IMG/VR virus record: IMGVR_UViG_3300045988_139511
Location: 1-55,729 of that record
From: a virus
Length of the DNA: 55,729 nucleotides
Strand: one strand, 5' to 3'
Shown here one piece after another: positions 2,203 through 55,175 of the stretch. Made by a program: the position numbers and the translations under genes. Below the pieces are notes generated by a model, which had not been told where the DNA came from, searched no databases, and worked only from the letters and a program-made list of their open reading frames with translations. Position 1 is the stretch's first letter, and each line of letters opens with the position of its first letter.

Positions 2203-3117
2203 ATGAGCTTATTTAGCAGGGAAAAGGCTCAGAAATTAAGAGAAAGGGTAATTGATAAAGAAAGTGAGAGAGGACAGAGGTTAGCTGGTGGCTTATGGAA
2301 TATGTTTAATGAGTTACACTCTATGGACTACTACGAGGATAAAGAGATAGAGGAGCTGTTACTAAAACAGAAACAGCATGAGGTAGAGGTAATGGACTTC
2401 TTTAAGACACTACCAAAGGACGTAGTAACATTTAGTCCCTCAGGAGCTGGGAAATGCAGGAGAGAGCTGGTATATAAGGCTAATAGGACTAAAAAGGATA
2501 TAATACAAAAGTACCCATATCAAAGACGTTGGACTAGAAATAGTACAGCCGTACACGGTGCCGTACAAACAGACCTGCTATATGCAGAGAAGAAATTAGC
2601 TAAGCCTATATTTACCGTAGCTAGAATGAAGGGTACTGGACTTCCAGCGTGGGAGAGTAACTTAAAGACAGTTAAAAGAATATCCCATAAAGGTGTAGAC
2701 TTTGCAGTATACGGAATGATGGACGGGGTATTAATTTATACGCCTGACGGCAGTAAGATAGGCTTTGAGTTTAAGACTAAGAGTACTACGATAGGTACTG
2801 TAGGTCATTACAAAATGAAGGACGCTGGGGCTGACCATAAGTTACAATGTGTAGCATACTCTATATTGTTTGGTATTGACGAGTATATTATCACTTATGA
2901 AAGTGTAGCTAAAGACGGCTGGACTAAGGGTGAGGAGGCTAAGCCTGACCTGAGAACTTTTTATCATAAGGTAACTGAGGAGGATAGGCAGGGGCTACTA
3001 GATAAGTGGGCTGAGACGGCTAAGGCTTATTATGAGAAGGAGCTACCTGAGAGAGAAGTAGATAAATGTATTTTCTGTCCTTATAAGACTGTTTGTGAGG
3101 TGGCTGATAATGAGTAA
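2203..3117 (+). CDS. PD-(D/E)XK Cas4/RecB-like exonuclease with an Fe-S cysteine cluster
   Basis: MDG..FEFKTK (D..ExK), QCVAYS motif, one N-terminal Cys (GAGKC) plus C-terminal CIFCPYKTVC. Confidence 0.7.
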   Translation: MSLFSREKAQKLRERVIDKESERGQRLAGGLWNMFNELHSMDYYEDKEIEELLLKQKQHEVEVMDFFKTLPKDVVTFSPSGAGKCRRELVYKANRTKKDIIQKYPYQRRWTRNSTAVHGAVQTDLLYAEKKLAKPIFTVARMKGTGLPAWESNLKTVKRISHKGVDFAVYGMMDGVLIYTPDGSKIGFEFKTKSTTIGTVGHYKMKDAGADHKLQCVAYSILFGIDEYIITYESVAKDGWTKGEEAKPDLRTFYHKVTEEDRQGLLDKWAETAKAYYEKELPEREVDKCIFCPYKTVCEVADNE

Positions 3118-3400
3118 TAAGATATTTATAGAAAATACTGAGGACTTAATAGGGCTTATTGGTGGTTACGATACAGAGGACTACAAGGTAATAGAAGAAG
3201 GGGACTGGGTATCTAGTGGTAAATATGAAGAAAAAGAGTGCATTATACAGGATATTAATACAGGTAAATATTATAGAATATTTGCAGATAGAACAGGCTC
3301 TTATTATTCAGATTACTATTACAACTATTATTCTGAGGCTGTGGAAGTTGAACAGATAGAAAAGGTAATTACCTGCTGGGAGGTAGTGTCTAATGAGTAA
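3110..3400 (+). CDS. Hypothetical protein (Tyr-rich)
   Basis: GAGGTGG SD then ATG 3110; I prefer this to the track start at 3095. Confidence 0.5.
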   Translation: MSNKIFIENTEDLIGLIGGYDTEDYKVIEEGDWVSSGKYEEKECIIQDINTGKYYRIFADRTGSYYSDYYYNYYSEAVEVEQIEKVITCWEVVSNE

Positions 3401-3912: not shown

Positions 3913-4167
3913 ATGACATTTGATAATATATTAGCAGATTTAAAATTAGGTAGAAAAGTAATGAGAAAGGGCTGGAACGGTAAGGGAATGTATATTTATT
4001 ATGTACCAGCTCAGAGCTATCCAGCCGTAACAGAAATAGCTAAAAAGGAGTTTGGGACTATGGTACCTTATGGGGCTTATATAGCTATGAAAACGGCTCA
4101 GGGAAACGTGGTACCATGGTTAGCAAGTCAAACAGATATTTTAGCTGAGGACTGGGTACTGATTTAA
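3913..4167 (+). CDS. DUF2829 (MW1434-like) protein, Tad2-family candidate
   Basis: LKLGRKVMRKGWNGKGMYIYY and VPWLASQTDILAEDWVLI are hallmark DUF2829 motifs. Confidence 0.7.
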   Translation: MTFDNILADLKLGRKVMRKGWNGKGMYIYYVPAQSYPAVTEIAKKEFGTMVPYGAYIAMKTAQGNVVPWLASQTDILAEDWVLI

Positions 4168-4174
4168 TTACAAA

Positions 4175-4207
4175 AGGGACTACTAAAATAGTGGTCTCTT
4201 TTTTTTT
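4175..4207 (+). terminator. Intrinsic terminator
   Basis: AGGGACTACTA/TAGTGGTCTCT hairpin plus a T-run. Confidence 0.7.
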
Positions 4208-4274: not shown

Positions 4275-4523
4275 ATGGAGGTTAAAATTGATGTTAATCA
4301 GCAACAAATAAGCAGAGGGGATATAGTTCGTTATGCAGGTAGAAACTGTATAGTAGTTGAAGAAAGGTTTACTCCAAGCTGTATGCTAATTAATTTAGAA
4401 ACAGGGGTAGTAATTGAAGGATATAATAACATTGTTGAATTAAGAAAAGTGCGCGACATAACATTACTGGCTAAGTTAGACGAGGTAGTATTAAACAAGA
4501 AAAAGCAGGAGGTACCGTTTTAA
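4275..4523 (+). CDS. Hypothetical protein
   Basis: 82-aa ORF with a GGAGG SD. Confidence 0.55.
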   Translation: MEVKIDVNQQQISRGDIVRYAGRNCIVVEERFTPSCMLINLETGVVIEGYNNIVELRKVRDITLLAKLDEVVLNKKKQEVPF

Positions 4524-5092
4524 TGTTTGGCAAGTTGACTGTAAATACTGGCTCAATGTACTCAGGGAAAAGCTCTGAGCTATTGAGACAAGGGGAGAGG
4601 CACCTACTAGCAGGTCATAAGGTAGTATTTATTAAGCCAGCGATAGACCTAAGATATGCTAAGGACGAGATAGTAACACATACAGGAGCTAAGGTTGAGG
4701 CTATTAGAGTTAGAGGAATAGATAATATAGCTGGTATGGCTCAGGTAGTGGAGGCTGACGTAATACTAATAGACGAGGTACAGTTTTTTGATAGCTGGTT
4801 ATCTATACAGATAATGGAGCTAATAGCAAAAGGTAAGCATGTGTATTGTTCAGGCTTAGATATGGACTTTATGGGGGAGCCTTTTAGTTTAACAGCCGAC
4901 CTAATGGCTAGGGCTGATGTAGTTAATAAGTTTAAGGCTGTATGTGCTGGTTGTGGAGCTGACGCTACATACTCGGGCAAGAACGCTAAGGCCAGTAAAA
5001 GAACTAGGATAGAGCTAGGAGCTAAGGAACTCTATATACCACTTTGTAGGGAGTGCTTTAACAAACAGAAGGAGACAGGTCAGGTATGCTAG
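4523..5092 (+). CDS. tdk: Thymidine kinase
   Basis: P-loop GSMYSGKSSELL, DEVQFF, C-terminal CAGCG...CRECF zinc motif. Confidence 0.85.
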   Translation: MFGKLTVNTGSMYSGKSSELLRQGERHLLAGHKVVFIKPAIDLRYAKDEIVTHTGAKVEAIRVRGIDNIAGMAQVVEADVILIDEVQFFDSWLSIQIMELIAKGKHVYCSGLDMDFMGEPFSLTADLMARADVVNKFKAVCAGCGADATYSGKNAKASKRTRIELGAKELYIPLCRECFNKQKETGQVC

Positions 5093-5283
5093 AGATACAA
5101 GGGCTGAGAAATAAAGTAAATAATATAGAGGCTGAGCTTAAAGAACTAGGAGCTTTAACAATATCCGACAGCTTTTTTATATTAAAAGCAAGAACAGCAA
5201 TTATACAAGCTGAGCTTATGTTAAATATTTTAGAGGAAAACTTAAAAGAATTAAGAAGAAAAGAGTTAGTTAGTGAGGAGTAG
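5086..5283 (+). CDS. Hypothetical coiled-coil protein
   Basis: 65-aa ORF overlapping the tdk stop. Confidence 0.45.
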   Translation: MLEIQGLRNKVNNIEAELKELGALTISDSFFILKARTAIIQAELMLNILEENLKELRRKELVSEE

Positions 5284-5290
5284 TTAATAT

Positions 5291-5758
5291 ATGAAAATTA
5301 AAAAGAGAGCTTTAAAAGTTGGGCAAAAAGTAGTATTAGTGGATAGAGTCCCTGACGGTGAAATAGTGGGAGGATATGTTGTTGAAATGAGAAGGTTGTT
5401 AGGAAAAGTAGCGACAATAAGAAAGGTGCATGAGGACCATTTTAAAATTTTAGAAGACATTGACGACTTTTTTTGGGATTATAAATTTATAAAAGAGATA
5501 AAGCCAGTTTCAAAAGTTCATAGTGTAAATGATTTTGTTTATGAGGATTACATTTTACCAGTCAGATATACTTTAGAAAAAGTAATTGAAAGTGGTAATG
5601 CTGTTATATGTTGGGTTGAGGACAATGAAACAATGAAAATGATAAAAACAGTTGCAAAATGTCAAGAAGGCGACAGATTTGACTTACATAAAGGTGTTGA
5701 AATCTGTATGTATAAAACATTAAGAAAGATTGCAGATAAGAATTTAAAGAGATTTTAA
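5291..5758 (+). CDS. Hypothetical protein
   Basis: 155-aa ORF in the operon. Confidence 0.55.
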   Translation: MKIKKRALKVGQKVVLVDRVPDGEIVGGYVVEMRRLLGKVATIRKVHEDHFKILEDIDDFFWDYKFIKEIKPVSKVHSVNDFVYEDYILPVRYTLEKVIESGNAVICWVEDNETMKMIKTVAKCQEGDRFDLHKGVEICMYKTLRKIADKNLKRF

Positions 5759-5775
5759 TTAAGAGGAGTGTAGCC

Positions 5776-6429
5776 GTGGTGATAGTAGTAGGTGGAATGA
5801 TAGGGCTAGGTAAGTCTAGTGTGGCTAAATTATTAGGGGAGAGATTAGGTACACAGGTATTTTATGAGAGTGTTGAGGATAATAAGATATTACCTTTATT
5901 CTATACAAGCTCTGAGGAAGAAATACAAGCTAAAAGATACCCATTTTTATTGCAATTATATTTCTTAGATACTAGATTTAAAAGTATTAAGGAGGCTCTA
6001 GTAGATGATAACAACGTGCTTGACAGGTCAATATATGAGGACTGGTATTTTGCTAAGGTTAATAGAGATTTAGGAAGAATATCAGACCTAGAGTTTGAGG
6101 TATACGAGAGCTTAGTTAATAATATGATGGAGGAGTTAGCTGAGTTACCAAAGAAAAGCCCTGATGTGTTTGTATATCTAAAGGGTAGTTTTGATACAGT
6201 ATTAGAAAGAATTAATAAAAGGGGTAGGGGTTACGAGCTGGACGAGAGCTTAGTAGATTACTACAGAGTATTATGGGAAGGTTACGACAGCTGGTTAGAA
6301 AATCATTATAAGGCTAGCGACGTTATTATAGTTGATATGGACGTAACTGACGTAGTAAATAATGAGAGCGACGCTGACGCTGTAGTAGACGCTGTAAAAG
6401 CTAAATTAAAAGAGTTAGGGAGGCTGTAA
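5776..6429 (+). CDS. Deoxynucleoside kinase (dAK/dGK family)
   Basis: P-loop GGMIGLGKSS, DRSIYED and RGRGYE motifs; GTG start after a GAGGAG SD. Confidence 0.75.
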   Translation: MVIVVGGMIGLGKSSVAKLLGERLGTQVFYESVEDNKILPLFYTSSEEEIQAKRYPFLLQLYFLDTRFKSIKEALVDDNNVLDRSIYEDWYFAKVNRDLGRISDLEFEVYESLVNNMMEELAELPKKSPDVFVYLKGSFDTVLERINKRGRGYELDESLVDYYRVLWEGYDSWLENHYKASDVIIVDMDVTDVVNNESDADAVVDAVKAKLKELGRL

Positions 6430-6431
6430 GT

Positions 6432-6656
6432 ATGTTATACGGAGAGACTAAGATAGCTGTAAACAATAAAAAGACTATGAGACTAGTATGCCCTAACTGT
6501 GGCGAGGGGTTTATTAAAGTAAATGAGCCAGCAGGGGCTACAGATAGACACGGCTTTACACTTTTTGGAGTAACGGCTCCGAGCTGTAATAATTGTGGAG
6601 CTAACTTTACAGTTATGATAGATAAAACATTGAAAATAACAATAGAAAGACAGTAG
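6432..6656 (+). CDS. Small zinc-ribbon protein
   Basis: CPNC ... CNNC pairs. Confidence 0.5.
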   Translation: MLYGETKIAVNNKKTMRLVCPNCGEGFIKVNEPAGATDRHGFTLFGVTAPSCNNCGANFTVMIDKTLKITIERQ

Positions 6657-6692
6657 GGGGCTATGGCTCCCTTAAATATGAGGAGGCAGACA

Positions 6693-6944
6693 ATGACAAG
6701 AAAAGAGGCACTATTAGGAGTATTTAATATAGGGATATATACAGACACTATCACAACAGTATTATTATCAGTTAAACATAAGGACTATCCTAGAGCTGAG
6801 ATAATAGCTGTACCGAGAGAAAACTTTGAATTAAAGGCTAAATACATAGCAGAGTATTATAATGAGGAGCTAGTATTAAAGAATTGTGAAGATATTAAAA
6901 TAGTAAACGTAAGAGCGATAAATAAAGAGGGAGGAGCAGTCTAA
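6693..6944 (+). CDS. Hypothetical protein
   Basis: GAGGAGG SD 6 nt before ATG 6693 (the track start at 6663 lacks an SD). Confidence 0.45.
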   Translation: MTRKEALLGVFNIGIYTDTITTVLLSVKHKDYPRAEIIAVPRENFELKAKYIAEYYNEELVLKNCEDIKIVNVRAINKEGGAV

Positions 6945-7372
6945 TGAAAAAGATATATTTAGCTAGTCCATTTTTTAATGAGACTGAAATTGAGACAATG
7001 AGTAAAGTATTAGAAATATTAAGAGGTAAGGGATTAGATGTATTTGCTCCATATGAAAACCAAAATAAACATTTAGAGTTTGGTACTAAGGAGTGGAGAG
7101 AGGCTACATTTAACGGAGACGTAGCTGGAATAGATAGAGCTGACGTGGTTGTAGCCATAGTAGCTGGTAACTACTGTGATAGTGGGACAGCGTGGGAGAT
7201 AGGTAATGCTGTAGCAAAAGGTAAGCCAGTAGTAATAGTTAATCCTACTAAGGATACAATTAATTTAATGATAAGTGATAGCTTACACGCTTATATAGAT
7301 AGCTTTAAGGCGCTAGAGGTATACAATTTTGAGACGTTAGCTAAAATCACGTATGATAATTATGTATGGTAG
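6944..7372 (+). CDS. Nucleoside 2-deoxyribosyltransferase family protein
   Basis: MKKIYLASPFFN ... DSGTAWEIG motifs of the NDT/Rcl fold. Confidence 0.7.
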   Translation: MKKIYLASPFFNETEIETMSKVLEILRGKGLDVFAPYENQNKHLEFGTKEWREATFNGDVAGIDRADVVVAIVAGNYCDSGTAWEIGNAVAKGKPVVIVNPTKDTINLMISDSLHAYIDSFKALEVYNFETLAKITYDNYVW

Positions 7373-7385
7373 GAGGTAGCAGGTA

Positions 7386-8555
7386 ATGGAAAAGATATTA
7401 GCAATTATAGGAATGATAGTTATAGTAGGTATCTGTTATCTATTCTCTAAGGGGAAAAAAGAAATTAACTGGAAGAGTGTAGGGATAGCCTTTGTAGGTC
7501 AATTAGTTCTCGCTCTAGTATTGATTAAAACTCCAGCATGGAAGTTAGTAGAGTTGATTTCAAGAGGGTTTGAGTGGTTACTGGCACAGAGTAGCGAGGG
7601 TATAAACTTTGTGTTTGGTGGAATATCAGATAACTTTGTATTCTTCATTAATTCATTATTGCCGATAGTATTTATTTCAGCTATTATGGGACTACTATTC
7701 CACTTTGGTATTATTCAAAAGTTTATTTCTGTAGTTGGATTATGTGTAGCTAAGATATTAAAAGTAGATACTTTAGTAGCTGTAAATAGTGTTACTAATA
7801 TGTTTTTAGGTCAGTCAGAGAGTTTATTTGTAACTAAGTCCTATTTACCTAACGCTAAGGATAGTGTAATATTCGCTACTTTAGTAGGAGGTATGACTAG
7901 TATATCAGTATCAGTAGTGGGCTTATACGCTGGGTTTGGTGCTAGTATGGAGTGGATTATAGTAAGTATGCCACTAACAGTATTTAGTACATTTGTATTA
8001 ACTCAAATAGTAATGCCGACTAAGTATGAGCCAGTTGAGGAGTTAGTAGTAGAGAATGATAAGGGAGTTAACTTTATTGATACTATGATGTCATATGCTA
8101 CTACAGGGTTTAAGTCAGTAATAGGTATAGCTGTAGCTCTAATGGTATTTATATCTTTAGTATATATGGTAAATAACTTATTAGGCTTTGTAGCTCCGTG
8201 GTTAACTATTGAGAAGATACTAGGTGTAGTATTCTATCCCTTATCTTTATTAATGGGAGTGCCTTTTGGTGAGATAGGAGTAGTATCTGAGATATTAGCT
8301 ACTAAGTTAGCTCTTAATGAGGCTGTAGCGTTTGGATTACCTCAATTCGCTATGTTATCAGCTAACGCTAAGGCTATGATGACTGTAGCTCTTTGTGGTT
8401 TTGCAGGATTTGGCTCAATAGGAATTTTAATAGGTGGTTACTCAGCTGTAGCTCCTAAGAAAATACCAGTAGTAGCTAAGCTAGGAGTAAAGGCTTTATT
8501 AGTGGCTACGTTAGTAAACATATTAACAGGGGCCGTAGTAGGTTTAATGTTATAG
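7386..8555 (+). CDS. nupC: NupC-family concentrative nucleoside transporter
   Basis: 389-aa polytopic membrane protein. The N-terminal INWKSVGIAFVGQLVLALVL region and overall layout look like NupC/CNT. Confidence 0.7.
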   Translation: MEKILAIIGMIVIVGICYLFSKGKKEINWKSVGIAFVGQLVLALVLIKTPAWKLVELISRGFEWLLAQSSEGINFVFGGISDNFVFFINSLLPIVFISAIMGLLFHFGIIQKFISVVGLCVAKILKVDTLVAVNSVTNMFLGQSESLFVTKSYLPNAKDSVIFATLVGGMTSISVSVVGLYAGFGASMEWIIVSMPLTVFSTFVLTQIVMPTKYEPVEELVVENDKGVNFIDTMMSYATTGFKSVIGIAVALMVFISLVYMVNNLLGFVAPWLTIEKILGVVFYPLSLLMGVPFGEIGVVSEILATKLALNEAVAFGLPQFAMLSANAKAMMTVALCGFAGFGSIGILIGGYSAVAPKKIPVVAKLGVKALLVATLVNILTGAVVGLML

Positions 8556-8568
8556 GAGGTTTGAGACA

Positions 8569-8742
8569 ATGGAGGTAATTATAGTATTATTAATAGCTGT
8601 TGCGATAGCTGTAGGGGCAATAGCAATATTAACAGCTTTAATAAATACAGTATTAGTAGCTCTAGGGTTTTCAGCTATAAGCTGGTGGACTGTAGTGCTG
8701 ATATTAGCAATAATAAGGCTGGCTAAATGGTTAACAAATTAA
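8569..8742 (+). CDS. Small membrane protein (57 aa, two hydrophobic segments)
   Basis: GGAGG SD, ATG 8569; too short to appear in the ORF track. Confidence 0.45.
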   Translation: MEVIIVLLIAVAIAVGAIAILTALINTVLVALGFSAISWWTVVLILAIIRLAKWLTN

Positions 8743-8749
8743 GAGACTG

Positions 8750-8775
8750 GAGAGCTGTAAAAGGCTCTCTTTTTT
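8750..8775 (+). terminator. Intrinsic terminator
   Basis: GAGAGC..GCTCTC hairpin plus T6. Confidence 0.75.
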
Positions 8776-17999: not shown

Positions 18000-18707
18000 A
18001 TGAAATTGAGAAAGAAAATAGCTGTAGCTCTATTAGCTGGGCTATTGATAGCTGGAGGAGCTGTTATCTATTCAGATATTACAGCTCTAGTAGCTACTAA
18101 GAATATGCAAATAGAGGAGCTACAGGATAATGTAAATAATAAACAACAGGAGCTGGATAGTAAACAGGTAGAGCTGGATAGTAAACAGATAGAGTTGGAT
18201 AGTAAACAGGTAGAGCTGGACAATGTAAATAATAAAATGAGGCAACTAGAGGAGGATAAGGAGGCTATATGGCAGGAGCTAAATAATAAGAGCAAAAAGC
18301 TGGAACAGTTTGAGGCCATACTGTCCTCCTCTGTTATTAAGATAACGCTGGAGGAGCTTGACCTGTTTTTTAGATTAGTTGAGGCTGAGGCAGGCAACGA
18401 GAGTATGAGGGGCAAGATAGCTGTGGCCAACGTAGTTATCAATAGAGTTAGAGATAGTAGATACCCCGATACTGTTAAGGGTGTTATATACCAGCCACAT
18501 CAATTCGAGCCAGTAATAAACGGACATATAAATAAAACAGCTCCAGCAGATAGTAAGGAGGCTGTATTGAGAGCTTTAAGAGGGGAGCAAGTAGTACCAG
18601 CTGATACTATTAGCTTTTGGGCTACATATCTAGATAGTTCCCACGAGCTTTGGAGCCTGCCTATTACGGCGAGGATAGGAGTACACGTATTCACTAATAA
18701 ATATTAA
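18000..18707 (+). CDS. Membrane-anchored SleB/CwlJ-type cell-wall hydrolase with a coiled-coil repeat
   Basis: N-terminal TM segment, ELDSKQ(V/I) tandem repeats, and a C-terminal VEAEAGNES...AVANVVINRV...QPHQFEPV Hydrolase_2 signature. Confidence 0.7.
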   Translation: MKLRKKIAVALLAGLLIAGGAVIYSDITALVATKNMQIEELQDNVNNKQQELDSKQVELDSKQIELDSKQVELDNVNNKMRQLEEDKEAIWQELNNKSKKLEQFEAILSSSVIKITLEELDLFFRLVEAEAGNESMRGKIAVANVVINRVRDSRYPDTVKGVIYQPHQFEPVINGHINKTAPADSKEAVLRALRGEQVVPADTISFWATYLDSSHELWSLPITARIGVHVFTNKY

Positions 18708-24687: not shown

Positions 24688-24990
24688 ATGTTAGAGCAGA
24701 CTATACTAGAAAAAATAAACCAGCTGGAGCAACAAATACTAGTACATTCTATAATGTATTACAGATTAGGAGCCAGCATATGGGACGACTTTATGTATGA
24801 TAGAAAAGCTAAGGAGCTACAGAGTCTAATAGAGGCTAATCCTGATGAGTTTAAAGCGAGTATATTATATAATGACTTTAAATTATTTAGCTGGGAGAGT
24901 GGATATGACCTACCGTTATGGGACAGCCATTACACAGCTGTAGCCATATGGTTGGTTGAGTATCATAAGCAACAGGGAGGAACTGTATAA
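24688..24990 (+). CDS. Stand-alone protein resembling domain Ia of NAD-dependent DNA ligase
   Basis: INQLEQQILVHSIMYYRLGASIWDDFMYDRKAKELQSLIEANPDEF parallels the LigA N-terminus by eye. Confidence 0.4.
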   Translation: MLEQTILEKINQLEQQILVHSIMYYRLGASIWDDFMYDRKAKELQSLIEANPDEFKASILYNDFKLFSWESGYDLPLWDSHYTAVAIWLVEYHKQQGGTV

Positions 24991-25800: not shown

Positions 25801-26745
25801 ATGAAAAACGTAGATAAGATAATAGCTAAAATGGTAAAGGAGATACCTACTACAGACTGTATCGCTGTAGACTTATTCGGAGCTACAGATATAAAGGAAA
25901 TATTAGAAAGAACTATAAACACTTTAAATAAAGTAAATAATGACACTTTAGAATTTCCTAGCCAAAGAGATAAGAGAAAAGCCATTACAGTATTAAGTAA
26001 TTTTATAAAGAAATATGGAGTATACGGAATAGAGCTTTACGGAGAGGACTGGTTAAAAGAGTACTCAGAGGATAGCTATAATATGGTAGTTGATAATATA
26101 GTTAAAAAAGCTAAAAAGGTCGTGGCTGAGGCTCCAGCTCCTGAGGCTGTAGAAGTGGCTGAGGAGCCAGCTACAGATAAGCCTAGAGTAATAGGCTACG
26201 CTAGGGTATCAACTAGAGAGCAAAACTTAGACAGACAAATAAAAGCTCTTAAAGAGTACGGCTGTGATACTATATTAGAAGAAAAGAAAACAGGAAAAAA
26301 TATGGACAGATTACAACTACAAACTTTATTAAATACAGTTAAGGCTGGGGATACTGTAGTAGTATCAGAGCTTACAAGAATATCAAGAAGTACAGCAGAC
26401 CTGCACAACTTAGTAAATGAGCTGGACGCTAAAGGTGTTACTTTTAAGAGCTTAAAAGAGAGCTGGATAGATACTACTACAGCTCACGGTAGACTAGTAT
26501 TTACTATGTTAGCTGGTGTAGCTCAATTCGAGAGAGAGCTGATGTTAGAGAGACAGGCTGAGGGTATCGAAGTAGCTAAGGAGAGAGGCGTAAAATTTGG
26601 TAGAAAACTAGATAAGGACGCTAACTTAGCTAGAGCTGTGGAGCTTTATAAAGAGGGTAAATATCCAGCTGGTGAGATAGCTAAAATGTGTAAAATGTCA
26701 AGAGCTACATTATATAGAAGGTTAAAAGATTTAGGACTAGTTTAG
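25801..26745 (+). CDS. Small serine recombinase (resolvase/invertase family) with a ~125-aa N-terminal extension
   Basis: VIGYARVSTREQNLDRQ catalytic-Ser motif, SRSTADL, FERELMLERQ, C-terminal HTH (MSRATLYRRL). Confidence 0.8.
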   Translation: MKNVDKIIAKMVKEIPTTDCIAVDLFGATDIKEILERTINTLNKVNNDTLEFPSQRDKRKAITVLSNFIKKYGVYGIELYGEDWLKEYSEDSYNMVVDNIVKKAKKVVAEAPAPEAVEVAEEPATDKPRVIGYARVSTREQNLDRQIKALKEYGCDTILEEKKTGKNMDRLQLQTLLNTVKAGDTVVVSELTRISRSTADLHNLVNELDAKGVTFKSLKESWIDTTTAHGRLVFTMLAGVAQFERELMLERQAEGIEVAKERGVKFGRKLDKDANLARAVELYKEGKYPAGEIAKMCKMSRATLYRRLKDLGLV

Positions 26746-54203: not shown

Positions 54204-55175
54204 ATGATGAAAATAAAAGGACAAGAGCTAGACATTAATTACTATGAGGAGCTGGAGCCTTATTTAGATAAATTTGAGCGTATGCAGATTAGGGGTGAGG
54301 AGCTTACAGCCTGTAGCCCACTAAGAGACGAGAGGAGACCGAGCTTTAGTATTAACTTAGGTACTGGACTATGGATAGACAGAGGGGGAGAAGGTATTAA
54401 CAGCAGGGGCAATATAGTCTCATTGCTGGCTCATTTGAGACAGGAGACCTATGAGGAGACAGCCGACTATTTACTAGAGGTCTACGGCCATATACTGGAT
54501 AATGCCGACGAACTAACATTAGATTTACAGTTAGAGCTGGAGCCTGCTGAGGTTACTCTATTAGCTCAGGAAAAATATGAGAATAGAATTAATAAACCTA
54601 GCGAGTATCTCAAAAGTAGAAAGATAGATATTGAGACACAAAAACTATTTAATACTGGTATATCTGAAAAGGGGGACGCTATCTGCCTACCGTGGCACGA
54701 CTGGCGAGGTCGAATTATTAATATGAAGTATAGAAAGATAAATAGTAAGGAGTTTTGGTACAGCTCAGGAGGTCAGCCAGTCAAAAAGCATTTATATGGG
54801 CTATTCTTAGTCTTAGAGCTACATAAGAAACAGCGTAGGTATAATAAGACCTTATCTCCTGTTTACTTAGTAGAGAGTGAGATAGACGCTTTATGTCTTT
54901 GGTCTATAGGTAAGCCAGCTATAGCATTTGGAGGCTCTAGCATATCAGAGCAACAGCAGGGGCTAATAGTGGATAAGTTGTCAGATTGTGAGCTAATACT
55001 GGCTACGGATAACGATAAAGTAGGTCAGAAGTTTAGAAAGGTATTAGCCAAAGAGCTAGGAGGCTATTTCATTATTAAAGAACTGGAGATACCTGAGGGG
55101 TACAAGGACGTAAACGAGTTGGAGCCTGAGCTAATAAATAATCTGAAACAAAATTTTATTAATTTTTTTAATTGA
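54204..55175 (+). CDS. TOPRIM DNA primase with a degenerate zinc-finger region
   Basis: VYLVESEIDALCLW (Glu), ILATDNDKVGQ (DxD). The N-terminal CSPLRDERRPSFSIN resembles the DnaG CPFH..TPSF motif but lacks the His/Cys ligands. Confidence 0.7.
   Translation: MMKIKGQELDINYYEELEPYLDKFERMQIRGEELTACSPLRDERRPSFSINLGTGLWIDRGGEGINSRGNIVSLLAHLRQETYEETADYLLEVYGHILDNADELTLDLQLELEPAEVTLLAQEKYENRINKPSEYLKSRKIDIETQKLFNTGISEKGDAICLPWHDWRGRIINMKYRKINSKEFWYSSGGQPVKKHLYGLFLVLELHKKQRRYNKTLSPVYLVESEIDALCLWSIGKPAIAFGGSSISEQQQGLIVDKLSDCELILATDNDKVGQKFRKVLAKELGGYFIIKELEIPEGYKDVNELEPELINNLKQNFINFFN

Follow-up and report, generated by a model that had tools for sequence, protein, structure and literature searches.

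To our knowledge, the nucleotide-supply genes of phages, which are well known, act almost always inside the cell, as reductases, thymidylate synthases and kinases. Lactobacilli that need deoxynucleosides use a bacterial salvage route in which a nucleoside 2-deoxyribosyltransferase (NDT) works alongside deoxyadenosine, deoxyguanosine and deoxycytidine kinases (dAK/dGK/dCK) and thymidine kinase (TK). A phage pathway that couples import to an enzyme is known from NARP3, in which a PnuC-like nicotinamide riboside transporter and a NadR-like enzyme rebuild NAD+ in an experimentally shown counter-defence (PMC13464706). Here we describe an operon at positions 4275-8742 of a 55,729-base stretch of viral DNA (IMG/VR record IMGVR_UViG_3300045988_139511, positions 1 to 55,729; hereafter the window) that encodes TK, a deoxynucleoside kinase (dNK), an NDT and a NupC-type nucleoside transporter. 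From gene identities, intact motifs, operon structure, selection, synteny and recurrence, we infer, with rather better than even confidence, that the operon is a phage cassette supplying deoxynucleoside triphosphates (dNTPs) by import and salvage, and not by ribonucleotide reduction.

Gene content of the salvage operon

The transcription unit is bounded by two intrinsic terminators (Table 1) and comprises ten open reading frames (ORFs), namely TK, dNK, NDT, NupC and six small ORFs, which either overlap or are spaced by at most 17 nt. An earlier reading of this DNA from its letters alone (the sequence-only reading) had placed the four named genes in a single operon; these do form one unit, the true extent of which is 4275-8742 and takes in the six further small ORFs. 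The five genes called in that reading, which include a deoxynucleoside monophosphate (dNMP) kinase at 16784, coincide exactly with ORFs, and Pfam and PHROGs agree in confirming the family of each.

Among the kinases, TK scores 187.8 bits against the NCBIfam equivalog NF003296 (cut-off 183) and aligns with PDB 8y7w (4e-36), including the P-loop and the zinc-site cysteines. The dNK aligns with a Mycoplasma dNK (PDB 2jaq; 6e-24) at the P-loop, the DRS motif and the Arg-rich lid, and matched no NCBIfam model. The dNMP kinase is of the T5 type (DNMK) and belongs to phrog_139 (5e-46), with no informative relative found in the PDB; it had been assigned to the next operon, and lies in fact farther downstream, by approximately 8 kb and no fewer than four units delimited by terminators.

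The NDT aligns without gaps to that of Bacillus psychrosaccharolyticus (BpNDT; PDB 6evs), with 66 of 133 residues identical (50%; 9e-39). In the alignment, Y5, D59, D79, E85 and N107 fall at the equivalent positions of 6evs, 1s2d and 1f8x; by the residue roles in the Lactobacillus leichmannii and L. helveticus enzymes, they are presumably deoxyribose and active-site residues, with E85 as the catalytic glutamate nucleophile. An aspartate is also kept where, presumably, the N-glycosidases of the family have serine. BpNDT is reported to be a type II enzyme, which transfers deoxyribose between purines and pyrimidines (PMC6270756). Because of the 50% gapless identity to this characterised type II transferase, the other function raised for the protein in the sequence-only reading, that of a dNMP N-glycosidase (Rcl/DNPH1-like), is unlikely and was rejected.

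The transporter gene encodes a full-length member of the concentrative nucleoside transporter (CNT) superfamily, with each of the three Pfam domains above its cut-off (Nucleos_tra2_N, 72.8 bits against 27; Gate, 30.5 against 29.6; Nucleos_tra2_C, 159.4 against 32.3). End-to-end alignment with CNT-NW (PDB 5l26; E 2e-55, query residues 6-388) and vcCNT (PDB 3tij; E 3e-52, query residues 4-388) places the gene among nucleoside transporters, and the outcome that the sequence-only reading had named as refuting, assignment to a non-nucleoside transporter family, was not observed. It corresponds to phrog_25571, labelled "unknown function" in PHROGs, and its ribosome-binding site is a strong Shine-Dalgarno sequence, TAGGAGGT. 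We compared NupC with the substrate-site residues of vcCNT (Gln154, Thr155 and Glu156 in HP1, Glu332 in HP2, Phe366, Asn368 and Ser371; numbering checked on the 3tij alignment), and found that it keeps G142-Q143-S144-E145 in HP1, N311-E312 in HP2, F339 (Phe366 of vcCNT) and S344 (Ser371), and carries glycine (Gly341) at the position of Asn368. The latter is one of three ribose contacts described as invariant between human CNTs and vcCNT (PMC4139061). In a clade of Clostridial and phage NupCs, glycine occupies this position in 37 of the 38 members, whether carried by phages or on chromosomes; asparagine occupies it in all 64 of the 64 ordinary homologues. By its sequence NupC is a divergent member of the CNT superfamily, lying outside the TIGR00804 subfamily model. 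Sugar recognition in the glycine clade may differ from that of ordinary NupCs, and a preference for deoxyribose is an attractive but speculative idea.

Genomic context and selection

In essence, the window spans an entire siphophage genome. Identity to Clostridium tyrobutyricum phages vB_CtyS-FA67 and FA70 is 67% for the large terminase, and identity to FA70 is 55% for the family A DNA polymerase (PolA); FA70 is the closest cultured relative, and a literature search turned up no paper mentioning it. FA70 or Bacillus phage PK2 has a collinear counterpart of most structural and replication genes, and the synteny of terminase, portal and tail genes with FA70 identifies the window as a phage, for which reason the contrary reading was dropped.

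In the slot between RuvC and PolA, FA70 carries NrdD, the radical-SAM activase NrdG, a C5 methyltransferase and a dUTPase, and PK2 has a class II ribonucleotide reductase (RNR), TK, dUTPase and dihydrofolate reductase (DHFR). The window has TK-dNK-NDT-NupC in this slot. All three phages share the dNMP kinase, which also has orthologues in every PolA-type relative. No RNR, ThyA/ThyX, dUTPase or dCMP deaminase was detected in the window by a Pfam scan that took in 61 of the 64 ORFs lying neither in the operon nor in the structural block (the remainder being two small ORFs on the minus strand and the primase homologue of 54204-55175), or by a PHROGs scan of ten unassigned ORFs; the absence of RNR and thymidylate synthase had been remarked on in the sequence-only reading. 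Among the loci fetched, no NrdD lies within 10 kb of a phage-borne NupC. This exchange of RNR for salvage genes within one slot, together with the lack of a nearby NrdD, is the strongest argument that the operon provides an alternative dNTP supply.

Ratios of nonsynonymous to synonymous divergence (dN/dS) were computed against relatives at synonymous divergence (dS) of 0.05-0.7 and beyond. Values ranged over 0.018-0.045 for TK, 0-0.045 for dNK, 0.06-0.08 for NDT, 0.07-0.08 for NupC and 0-0.07 for DNMK, compared with 0.09-0.23 for PolA and 0.12 for RuvC. Against a single relative, L022 (related loci are given here by L numbers), the values were 0.018 for TK, 0.045 for dNK, 0.082 for NDT, 0.072 for NupC and 0.069 for DNMK, with PolA at 0.091 and RuvC at 0.118. 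The five salvage genes are under purifying selection as strong as, or stronger than, that on PolA. The order TK-dNK-NDT-NupC is also retained across the 55-kb clade (L021, L022, L011 and L012); L023 is without TK solely because its contig ends there, and a subgroup (L024, L025, L032 and L033) possesses TK, dNK and NupC with NDT absent. The small ORFs between the four genes vary in presence across relatives.

Dozens of public metagenomic contigs, often 55-58 kb in length, carry identical copies of window proteins, and on this basis the phage belongs to an abundant uncultured clade. One match came from a human gut metagenome. A scan of genome contigs matched five loci, too few for naming a host.

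Recurrence and origin of the NupC-dNK linkage

More than 120 NupC homologues were found at 71-99% identity. Among 40 fetched loci with a NupC at least 56% identical, dNK lies within approximately 2 kb upstream in 24 (10 kb in L030), three further loci, all short contigs, have NDT adjacent to NupC, and five are chromosomal Clostridium nrdD-nrdG-nupC loci. Around ordinary NupCs (31-36% identity), a dNK, TK or NDT match was nearby in 2 of 64 loci.

At least five further backbones, of phages or phage-plasmids, show the linkage of NupC to dNK. It was identified in 89-kb contigs of C. perfringens with a DnaE-type polymerase, in a 226-kb contig with TK, dNK and NupC back to back, in IMG/VR contigs L026 and L027 with dNK, NupC and primase, and in pCP_P201, a complete 93-kb replicon deposited as a circular plasmid, where a NupC 32% identical to that of the window is followed by dNK and NDT. 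In the viral backbone of L004 and L041, NupC lies inside the replication module without dNK. That the same gene set was built independently around two distant NupC lineages argues that it is a functional unit. A 5'-nucleotidase of the e(P4)/class B type (acid phosphatase) is encoded as well, both on pCP_P201 and on the 89-kb contigs; it has a hydrophobic, signal-like segment at its N-terminus and could convert extracellular dNMPs to nucleosides that NupC can carry.

The chromosomal Clostridium homologue of NupC, which directly follows nrdD-nrdG, is 74% identical to the phage protein. In a neighbour-joining tree of NupC, which has no support values and was used, with the mistranslated rows L040 and L020 ignored, only for the intermixing of chromosomal and phage copies, the chromosomal copies are interspersed with those of phages, and the PolA-type phages do not form a single clade. 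Exchange of NupC between hosts and phages probably occurred more than once.

Among 50,697 phage records, a megablast search with the operon gave no match, and a tblastn search with NupC gave nine matches below 41% identity, of which the six with query coverage of 80% or more reached at most 33%. These nine were not counted as phage, being unannotated "SA 1306 Kay"-style deposits of 1.6 to 214 kb that resemble host contigs. The earlier remark that such a transporter is unusual for a phage is therefore borne out for cultured phages, with no credible NupC in these records, but not for the present uncultured clade, in which the module is common. Scans of IMG/VR for NupC found only five contigs.

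Operon regulation

A putative promoter-like motif, GTATTACTCTATGTAA, lies 23 nt 5' of the first ORF of the operon. The corresponding pattern, GTATTAMYNNWKGWAA, has eight matches in the window, where chance would give 0.06, a statistic inflated because the pattern was derived by eye, after the fact. Six of the eight matches stand directly 5' of replication or recombination operons (2160, 4237, 10204, 10777, 51209 and 53737), with that at 10777 preceding PolA and that at 51209 preceding genes for a replication ATPase and DnaB; the motif is thus common to the salvage operon and to the PolA, helicase and exonuclease operons. It is retained 5' of TK in L021 (7577) and, in a looser form, in L022 (7020), where it is also retained 5' of the dNMP kinase. 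If it acts as a promoter, the motif says that the salvage operon is in the same regulatory class as the replication machinery, and the operon appears to be transcribed along with the replication genes.

A second promoter class consists of near-identical TTGACACATTTGAGACA...TATAAT sites, of which the window has seven against none expected; it is distinct from the GTATTAC...TGTAA motif of the replication operons. No riboswitch was found 5' of the operon with Rfam, and no NrdR-box-like site was found at the phage operon. At a chromosomal nrdD-nrdG-nupC locus (L008), a NrdR-box-like palindrome, ACACTATATATAGTAT, is located at 7024-7039, approximately 120 bp 5' of the genes; it has one mismatch to what we take to be the NrdR consensus, and matches of equal quality in this locus are not rarer than chance.

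A proposed import-and-salvage pathway

In the pathway that we propose, NupC would insert in the host membrane, where an ion gradient would drive the concentration of external nucleosides, probably deoxynucleosides and including those released by lysed neighbours or from gut DNA. The type II NDT would shift deoxyribose from whichever deoxynucleoside is available to other bases, rebalancing the four. TK would phosphorylate thymidine and deoxyuridine, and dNK would phosphorylate deoxyadenosine, deoxyguanosine and deoxycytidine, yielding dNMPs that the dNMP kinase would convert to diphosphates; host nucleoside diphosphate kinase would then generate the dNTPs consumed by the phage family A polymerase. 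Substrates, direction of flux, timing and benefit are what we infer here. The same proposal in the sequence-only reading, that import and salvage supply dNTPs for replication, gains at the sequence level from purifying selection, from the FA70 slot occupied by NrdD, NrdG and dUTPase, from the recurrent NupC-dNK linkage and from the shared promoter-like motif. Together, these findings suggest that phage DNA is built partly from scavenged nucleosides.

Several points weigh against this interpretation. The uptake, kinase and transferase activities are predictions from sequence. One of the three ribose-contact residues of NupC differs (Gly341), making the substrate less certain, and the protein scores 293.9 bits against TIGR00804 (the NupC/NupG subfamily), below the curated cut-off of 442. 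CNT transporters usually carry ribonucleosides too, and imports could serve RNA or the general nucleotide pool. Host RNR would still be available, such that salvage may be only a supplement. The promoter-like motif is putative, and a weak sigma-70-like site at 7329-7357, of a quality no commoner than chance, could drive NupC alone. Further, the phage looks temperate or plasmid-like, with its ParM-like, recombinase and repressor-like helix-turn-helix (HTH) genes, and the operon may be expressed in a carrier state.

Alternative explanations

This last point can be extended into an alternative in which the cassette is primarily a fitness factor of the lysogenic or phage-plasmid carrier state, raising the scavenging capacity of the host during maintenance, and not primarily a lytic aid. 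No tyrosine integrase was found in the window, whose gene products include a serine recombinase, a ParM-like actin, HTH proteins of the RepL/DnaD-like kind and a divergent repressor-like HTH; its relatives occur as separate 55-kb and 89-kb contigs in isolate assemblies of C. difficile and C. perfringens, and pCP_P201 is a circular plasmid. Together these features suggest a phage-plasmid lifestyle, and the 74% identity of the phage NupC to chromosomal Clostridium copies, and their intermixing in the tree, would also fit a carrier-state role. However, the genes lie within the replication block, behind the motif type of PolA and the helicase and not behind sigma-70 consensus promoters, they do not form a moron-like isolated unit of promoter, gene and terminator, and even FA70 and PK2 retain their partner dNMP kinase. 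We consider this explanation rather unlikely.

A role in counter-defence is unlikely as well. By analogy with the rebuilding of NAD+ by NARP3, the module might rebuild dNTP pools emptied by immunity of the dGTPase or dCTP-deaminase type, with import bringing fresh deoxynucleosides and the kinases re-phosphorylating nucleosides released by the defence. There is precedent for a phage importer-plus-kinase pair acting against metabolite-depleting immunity (PMC13464706), and dNTP-depleting defences are known from the literature; the gene closing the preceding transcription unit is Tad2-like (anti-Thoeris), and a dAK/dGK-type kinase would act directly on deoxyguanosine released by a dGTPase. In its fullest form, this explanation would be a "dNTP reconstitution pathway", conceivable though improbable, in which a NupC-dNK core together with TK, NDT and DNMK lets Clostridial phages replicate in dNTP-destroying hosts via a deoxyribose-preferring, Gly341-type CNT. 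Conversely, the presence of RNR in the FA70 and PK2 slot points to ordinary supply, and the lack of NrdD within 10 kb of phage-borne NupC among the loci fetched fits alternative supply strategies. No dNTP-depleting defence was identified in any host of the window phage, and a PADLOC scan of the operon gave no relevant match, only a weak P-loop-type match of dNK to VakA that was judged not meaningful.

Far less probable is a contribution to non-canonical DNA, in which NDT would put an unusual base on deoxyribose and the kinases and polymerase would incorporate it, evading restriction. In its favour, a wide range of base analogues is accepted by NDTs, the phage brings kinases and a polymerase of its own, and a Mom-like gene lies nearby in some relatives. 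The NDT of the window is nevertheless close to an ordinary type II enzyme, no Mom gene is present in the window, and no PurZ, 7-deazaguanine, dNMP hydroxymethylase or ThyA-like genes were found among the non-structural ORFs scanned. Neutral carriage of recently captured host genes, to which the 74% identity of NupC to a chromosomal Clostridium gene might point, is scarcely credible, being contradicted by dN/dS of 0.02-0.08 at dS up to 0.65 and beyond, by retention in a clade whose PolA has diverged to 58% identity, by independent recruitment into several backbones and by exact proteins on dozens of contigs.

Small open reading frames and neighbouring genes

The features of the operon and of the wider window are collected in Table 1. 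The 82-aa protein that opens the operon had no Pfam, PHROG or PADLOC match. The 155-aa protein was modelled with AF2 at a pLDDT of 89.4 and gave no PDB fold match below E 0.19; its C-terminal part has a weak, partial likeness to the SPO1 anti-CBASS sponge Acb4 (9e4w_J, probability 0.85, E 0.8), on which we do not rely. An ORF of the type of the 57-aa two-helix protein, with an LLNxxLxxxGL-like motif, occupies the same position after NupC in L021 (11178-11354), L022 (11180-11425), L011 (10543-10749), L023, L024, L025, L032 and L033, and is absent after chromosomal nupC.

Table 1. Features of the salvage operon, its partner genes and the wider window
Feature	Position	Strand	Basis or remark
Intrinsic terminator	4172-4202	+	14-bp stem followed by a T-run; ends the preceding unit (RuvC, Tad2-like) and marks the upstream operon boundary
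Putative promoter-like motif GTATTACTCTATGTAA	4237-4252	+	23 nt 5' of the first ORF of the operon
82-aa ORF, first gene of the operon	4275-4523	+	ORF; present in L021
Thymidine kinase, TK1-like (type II)	4523-5092	+	PF00265, 6e-42, 143.8 bits (cut-off 20.6)
65-aa ORF	5086-5283	+	7-nt overlap with the TK stop; no Pfam or PHROG family match
155-aa ORF, kept within the phage clade	5291-5758	+	35 homologues, all on metagenomic contigs, several of ~55 kb
Deoxynucleoside kinase, bacterial dAK/dGK/dCK type	5776-6429	+	PF01712, 1e-39, 136.8 bits (cut-off 27)
74-aa zinc-ribbon ORF	6432-6656	+	Zinc-ribbon Pfam matches, all sub-threshold
93-aa ORF, phrog_3915	6663-6944	+	phrog_3915, 9e-13; orthologues only in L021 and L022
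Nucleoside 2-deoxyribosyltransferase, probably type II	6944-7372	+	PF05014, 3e-26, 92.3 bits (cut-off 28.8)
NupC/CNT-family concentrative nucleoside transporter, full length, 389 aa	7386-8555	+	Three Pfam CNT domains
57-aa protein, two predicted transmembrane helices	8569-8742	+	Always directly 3' of NupC in the PolA-type phage clade
Intrinsic terminator	8749-8770	+	Ends the operon; a perfect sigma-70-type promoter follows at 8825-8853
TTGACACATTTGAGACA...TATAAT promoters	8825, 18958, 19646, 20333, 21865, 25078, 25716	+	5' of small-ORF gene sets and the recombinase gene
Divergent Cro/C1-type repressor-like HTH	16186-16581	-	Pfam scan
dNMP kinase (T5-type DNMK), separate transcription unit	16784-17329	+	PF21448, 2e-13, 50.8 bits (cut-off 27.1)
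Serine recombinase with N-terminal extension	25801-26745	+	Pfam scan
ParM/ALP-like actin	47309-48229	-	Pfam scan
HTH_36/RepL-like protein	48635-49393	-	Pfam scan
e(P4)/class B acid phosphatase	L005 1646-2461; NZ_CP143272.1 88536-89351		Larger C. perfringens elements with NupC, dNK and NDT

The Tad2-like (Thoeris anti-defence 2) gene at 3913-4167 (+; PF11195, 6e-24), the final gene of the unit preceding the salvage operon, has a counterpart in L021. A Mom-like gene (PF25680) lies between exonuclease and RuvC in L022 (5408-6181) and L011 (2816-3637), and the counterpart position in the window holds an unrelated 101-aa ORF (3095-3400). PolA of the window (10815-13964, +) is split into segments at 10815-12197 and 13035-13964, with an ORF for an HNH endonuclease (12415-12951) between them; the flanks of this ORF match the group I intron model RF00028 at 33.3 and 26.1 bits, below its gathering score of 50, and PolA is uninterrupted in L022, L023 and L011 (760-800 aa). 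The block that holds the dNMP kinase also encodes a small sigma-70 region-4-like protein (17316-17636) and, at 18000-18707 (+), a protein in which a membrane anchor and a coiled coil with QELDSKQ[VI]ELDSKQ repeats precede a cell-wall hydrolase domain of the SleB type (PF07486). A stand-alone protein with a NAD+-dependent ligase Ia domain is encoded at 24688-24990 (+; PF22745, 2e-19); in L011, which is associated with C. difficile, a homologous small gene (8026-8292) is positioned inside the salvage operon, between dNK and NDT. The intergenic regions at 48230-48634 and 49803-50237 are AT-rich with short direct repeats, such as ACTGAGTATATACT-like and ATATAGTTTAAT-like units, and, since they adjoin the ParM-like and Rep-like genes, are possible candidates for partition or origin sites.

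Implications and comparison with known systems

A membrane importer ties phage DNA synthesis to the extracellular nucleoside pool, and the cassette appears to stand in for the oxygen-sensitive anaerobic reductase of related phages. If the import-and-salvage interpretation is true, the burst size of abundant gut phages of Clostridia, a group that includes elements of C. difficile and C. perfringens, would depend on lumen deoxynucleosides, and cells lysing nearby could supply subsequent infections. Cells that are infected or carry the element might gain the capacity to take up and activate nucleoside-analogue drugs or labels, which could be applied to selective killing or to the tagging of replicating phage DNA in anaerobes. 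The clade of CNTs with glycine in place of Asn368, whether phage-borne or linked to chromosomal nrdDG, would also provide a natural experiment on sugar recognition in a medically important family.

Compared with salvage of the Lactobacillus type, the window pathway has the same enzyme logic, in which one deoxyribosyl donor is spread over all bases, and its dNK is in the same Pfam family as the Lactobacillus-type kinases. It differs in being viral, in being encoded in one operon with its own membrane importer, in its T5-type dNMP kinase and in occupying the RNR position of related phages. With the reduction or de novo modules of FA70 and PK2 (NrdD/NrdG, class II RNR, ThyA/ThyX, dUTPase, DHFR), the cassette has in common the slot, the presumed purpose and the DNMK partner, whereas it comprises no reductase, thymidylate synthase or dUTPase and would depend on preformed deoxynucleosides and a transporter.

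Among described systems, NARP3 comes closest: both couple, genetically, a phage inner-membrane importer to a riboside-trapping kinase that supplies a pool on which replication depends. The transporter is PnuC in one and a CNT in the other, the substrates and products are nicotinamide riboside and NAD+ as opposed to deoxynucleosides and dNTPs, and the hosts are Enterobacteriaceae as opposed to Clostridia; with different families, the two are analogous in logic only. Relative to bacterial members of the NupC/CNT family (E. coli NupC, B. subtilis NupC, vcCNT 3tij and CNT-NW 5l26), the window NupC aligns over its full length and has in common the three domains, the GQ(S/T)E motif of HP1 and the NE motif of HP2, but it is only 31-36% identical to ordinary NupCs, replaces Asn368 with glycine, is phage-borne and is linked to dNK. 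One public source labels a cluster member "CNT family concentrative nucleoside transporter", an automatic annotation, and full-text literature searches for a phage-encoded NupC, nucleoside permease or nucleoside transporter returned nothing relevant; as far as we found, the gene has been annotated automatically without being interpreted. The TK, dNK, NDT and dNMP kinase each belong to PHROG families and are familiar from phages, and the transporter is the new element.

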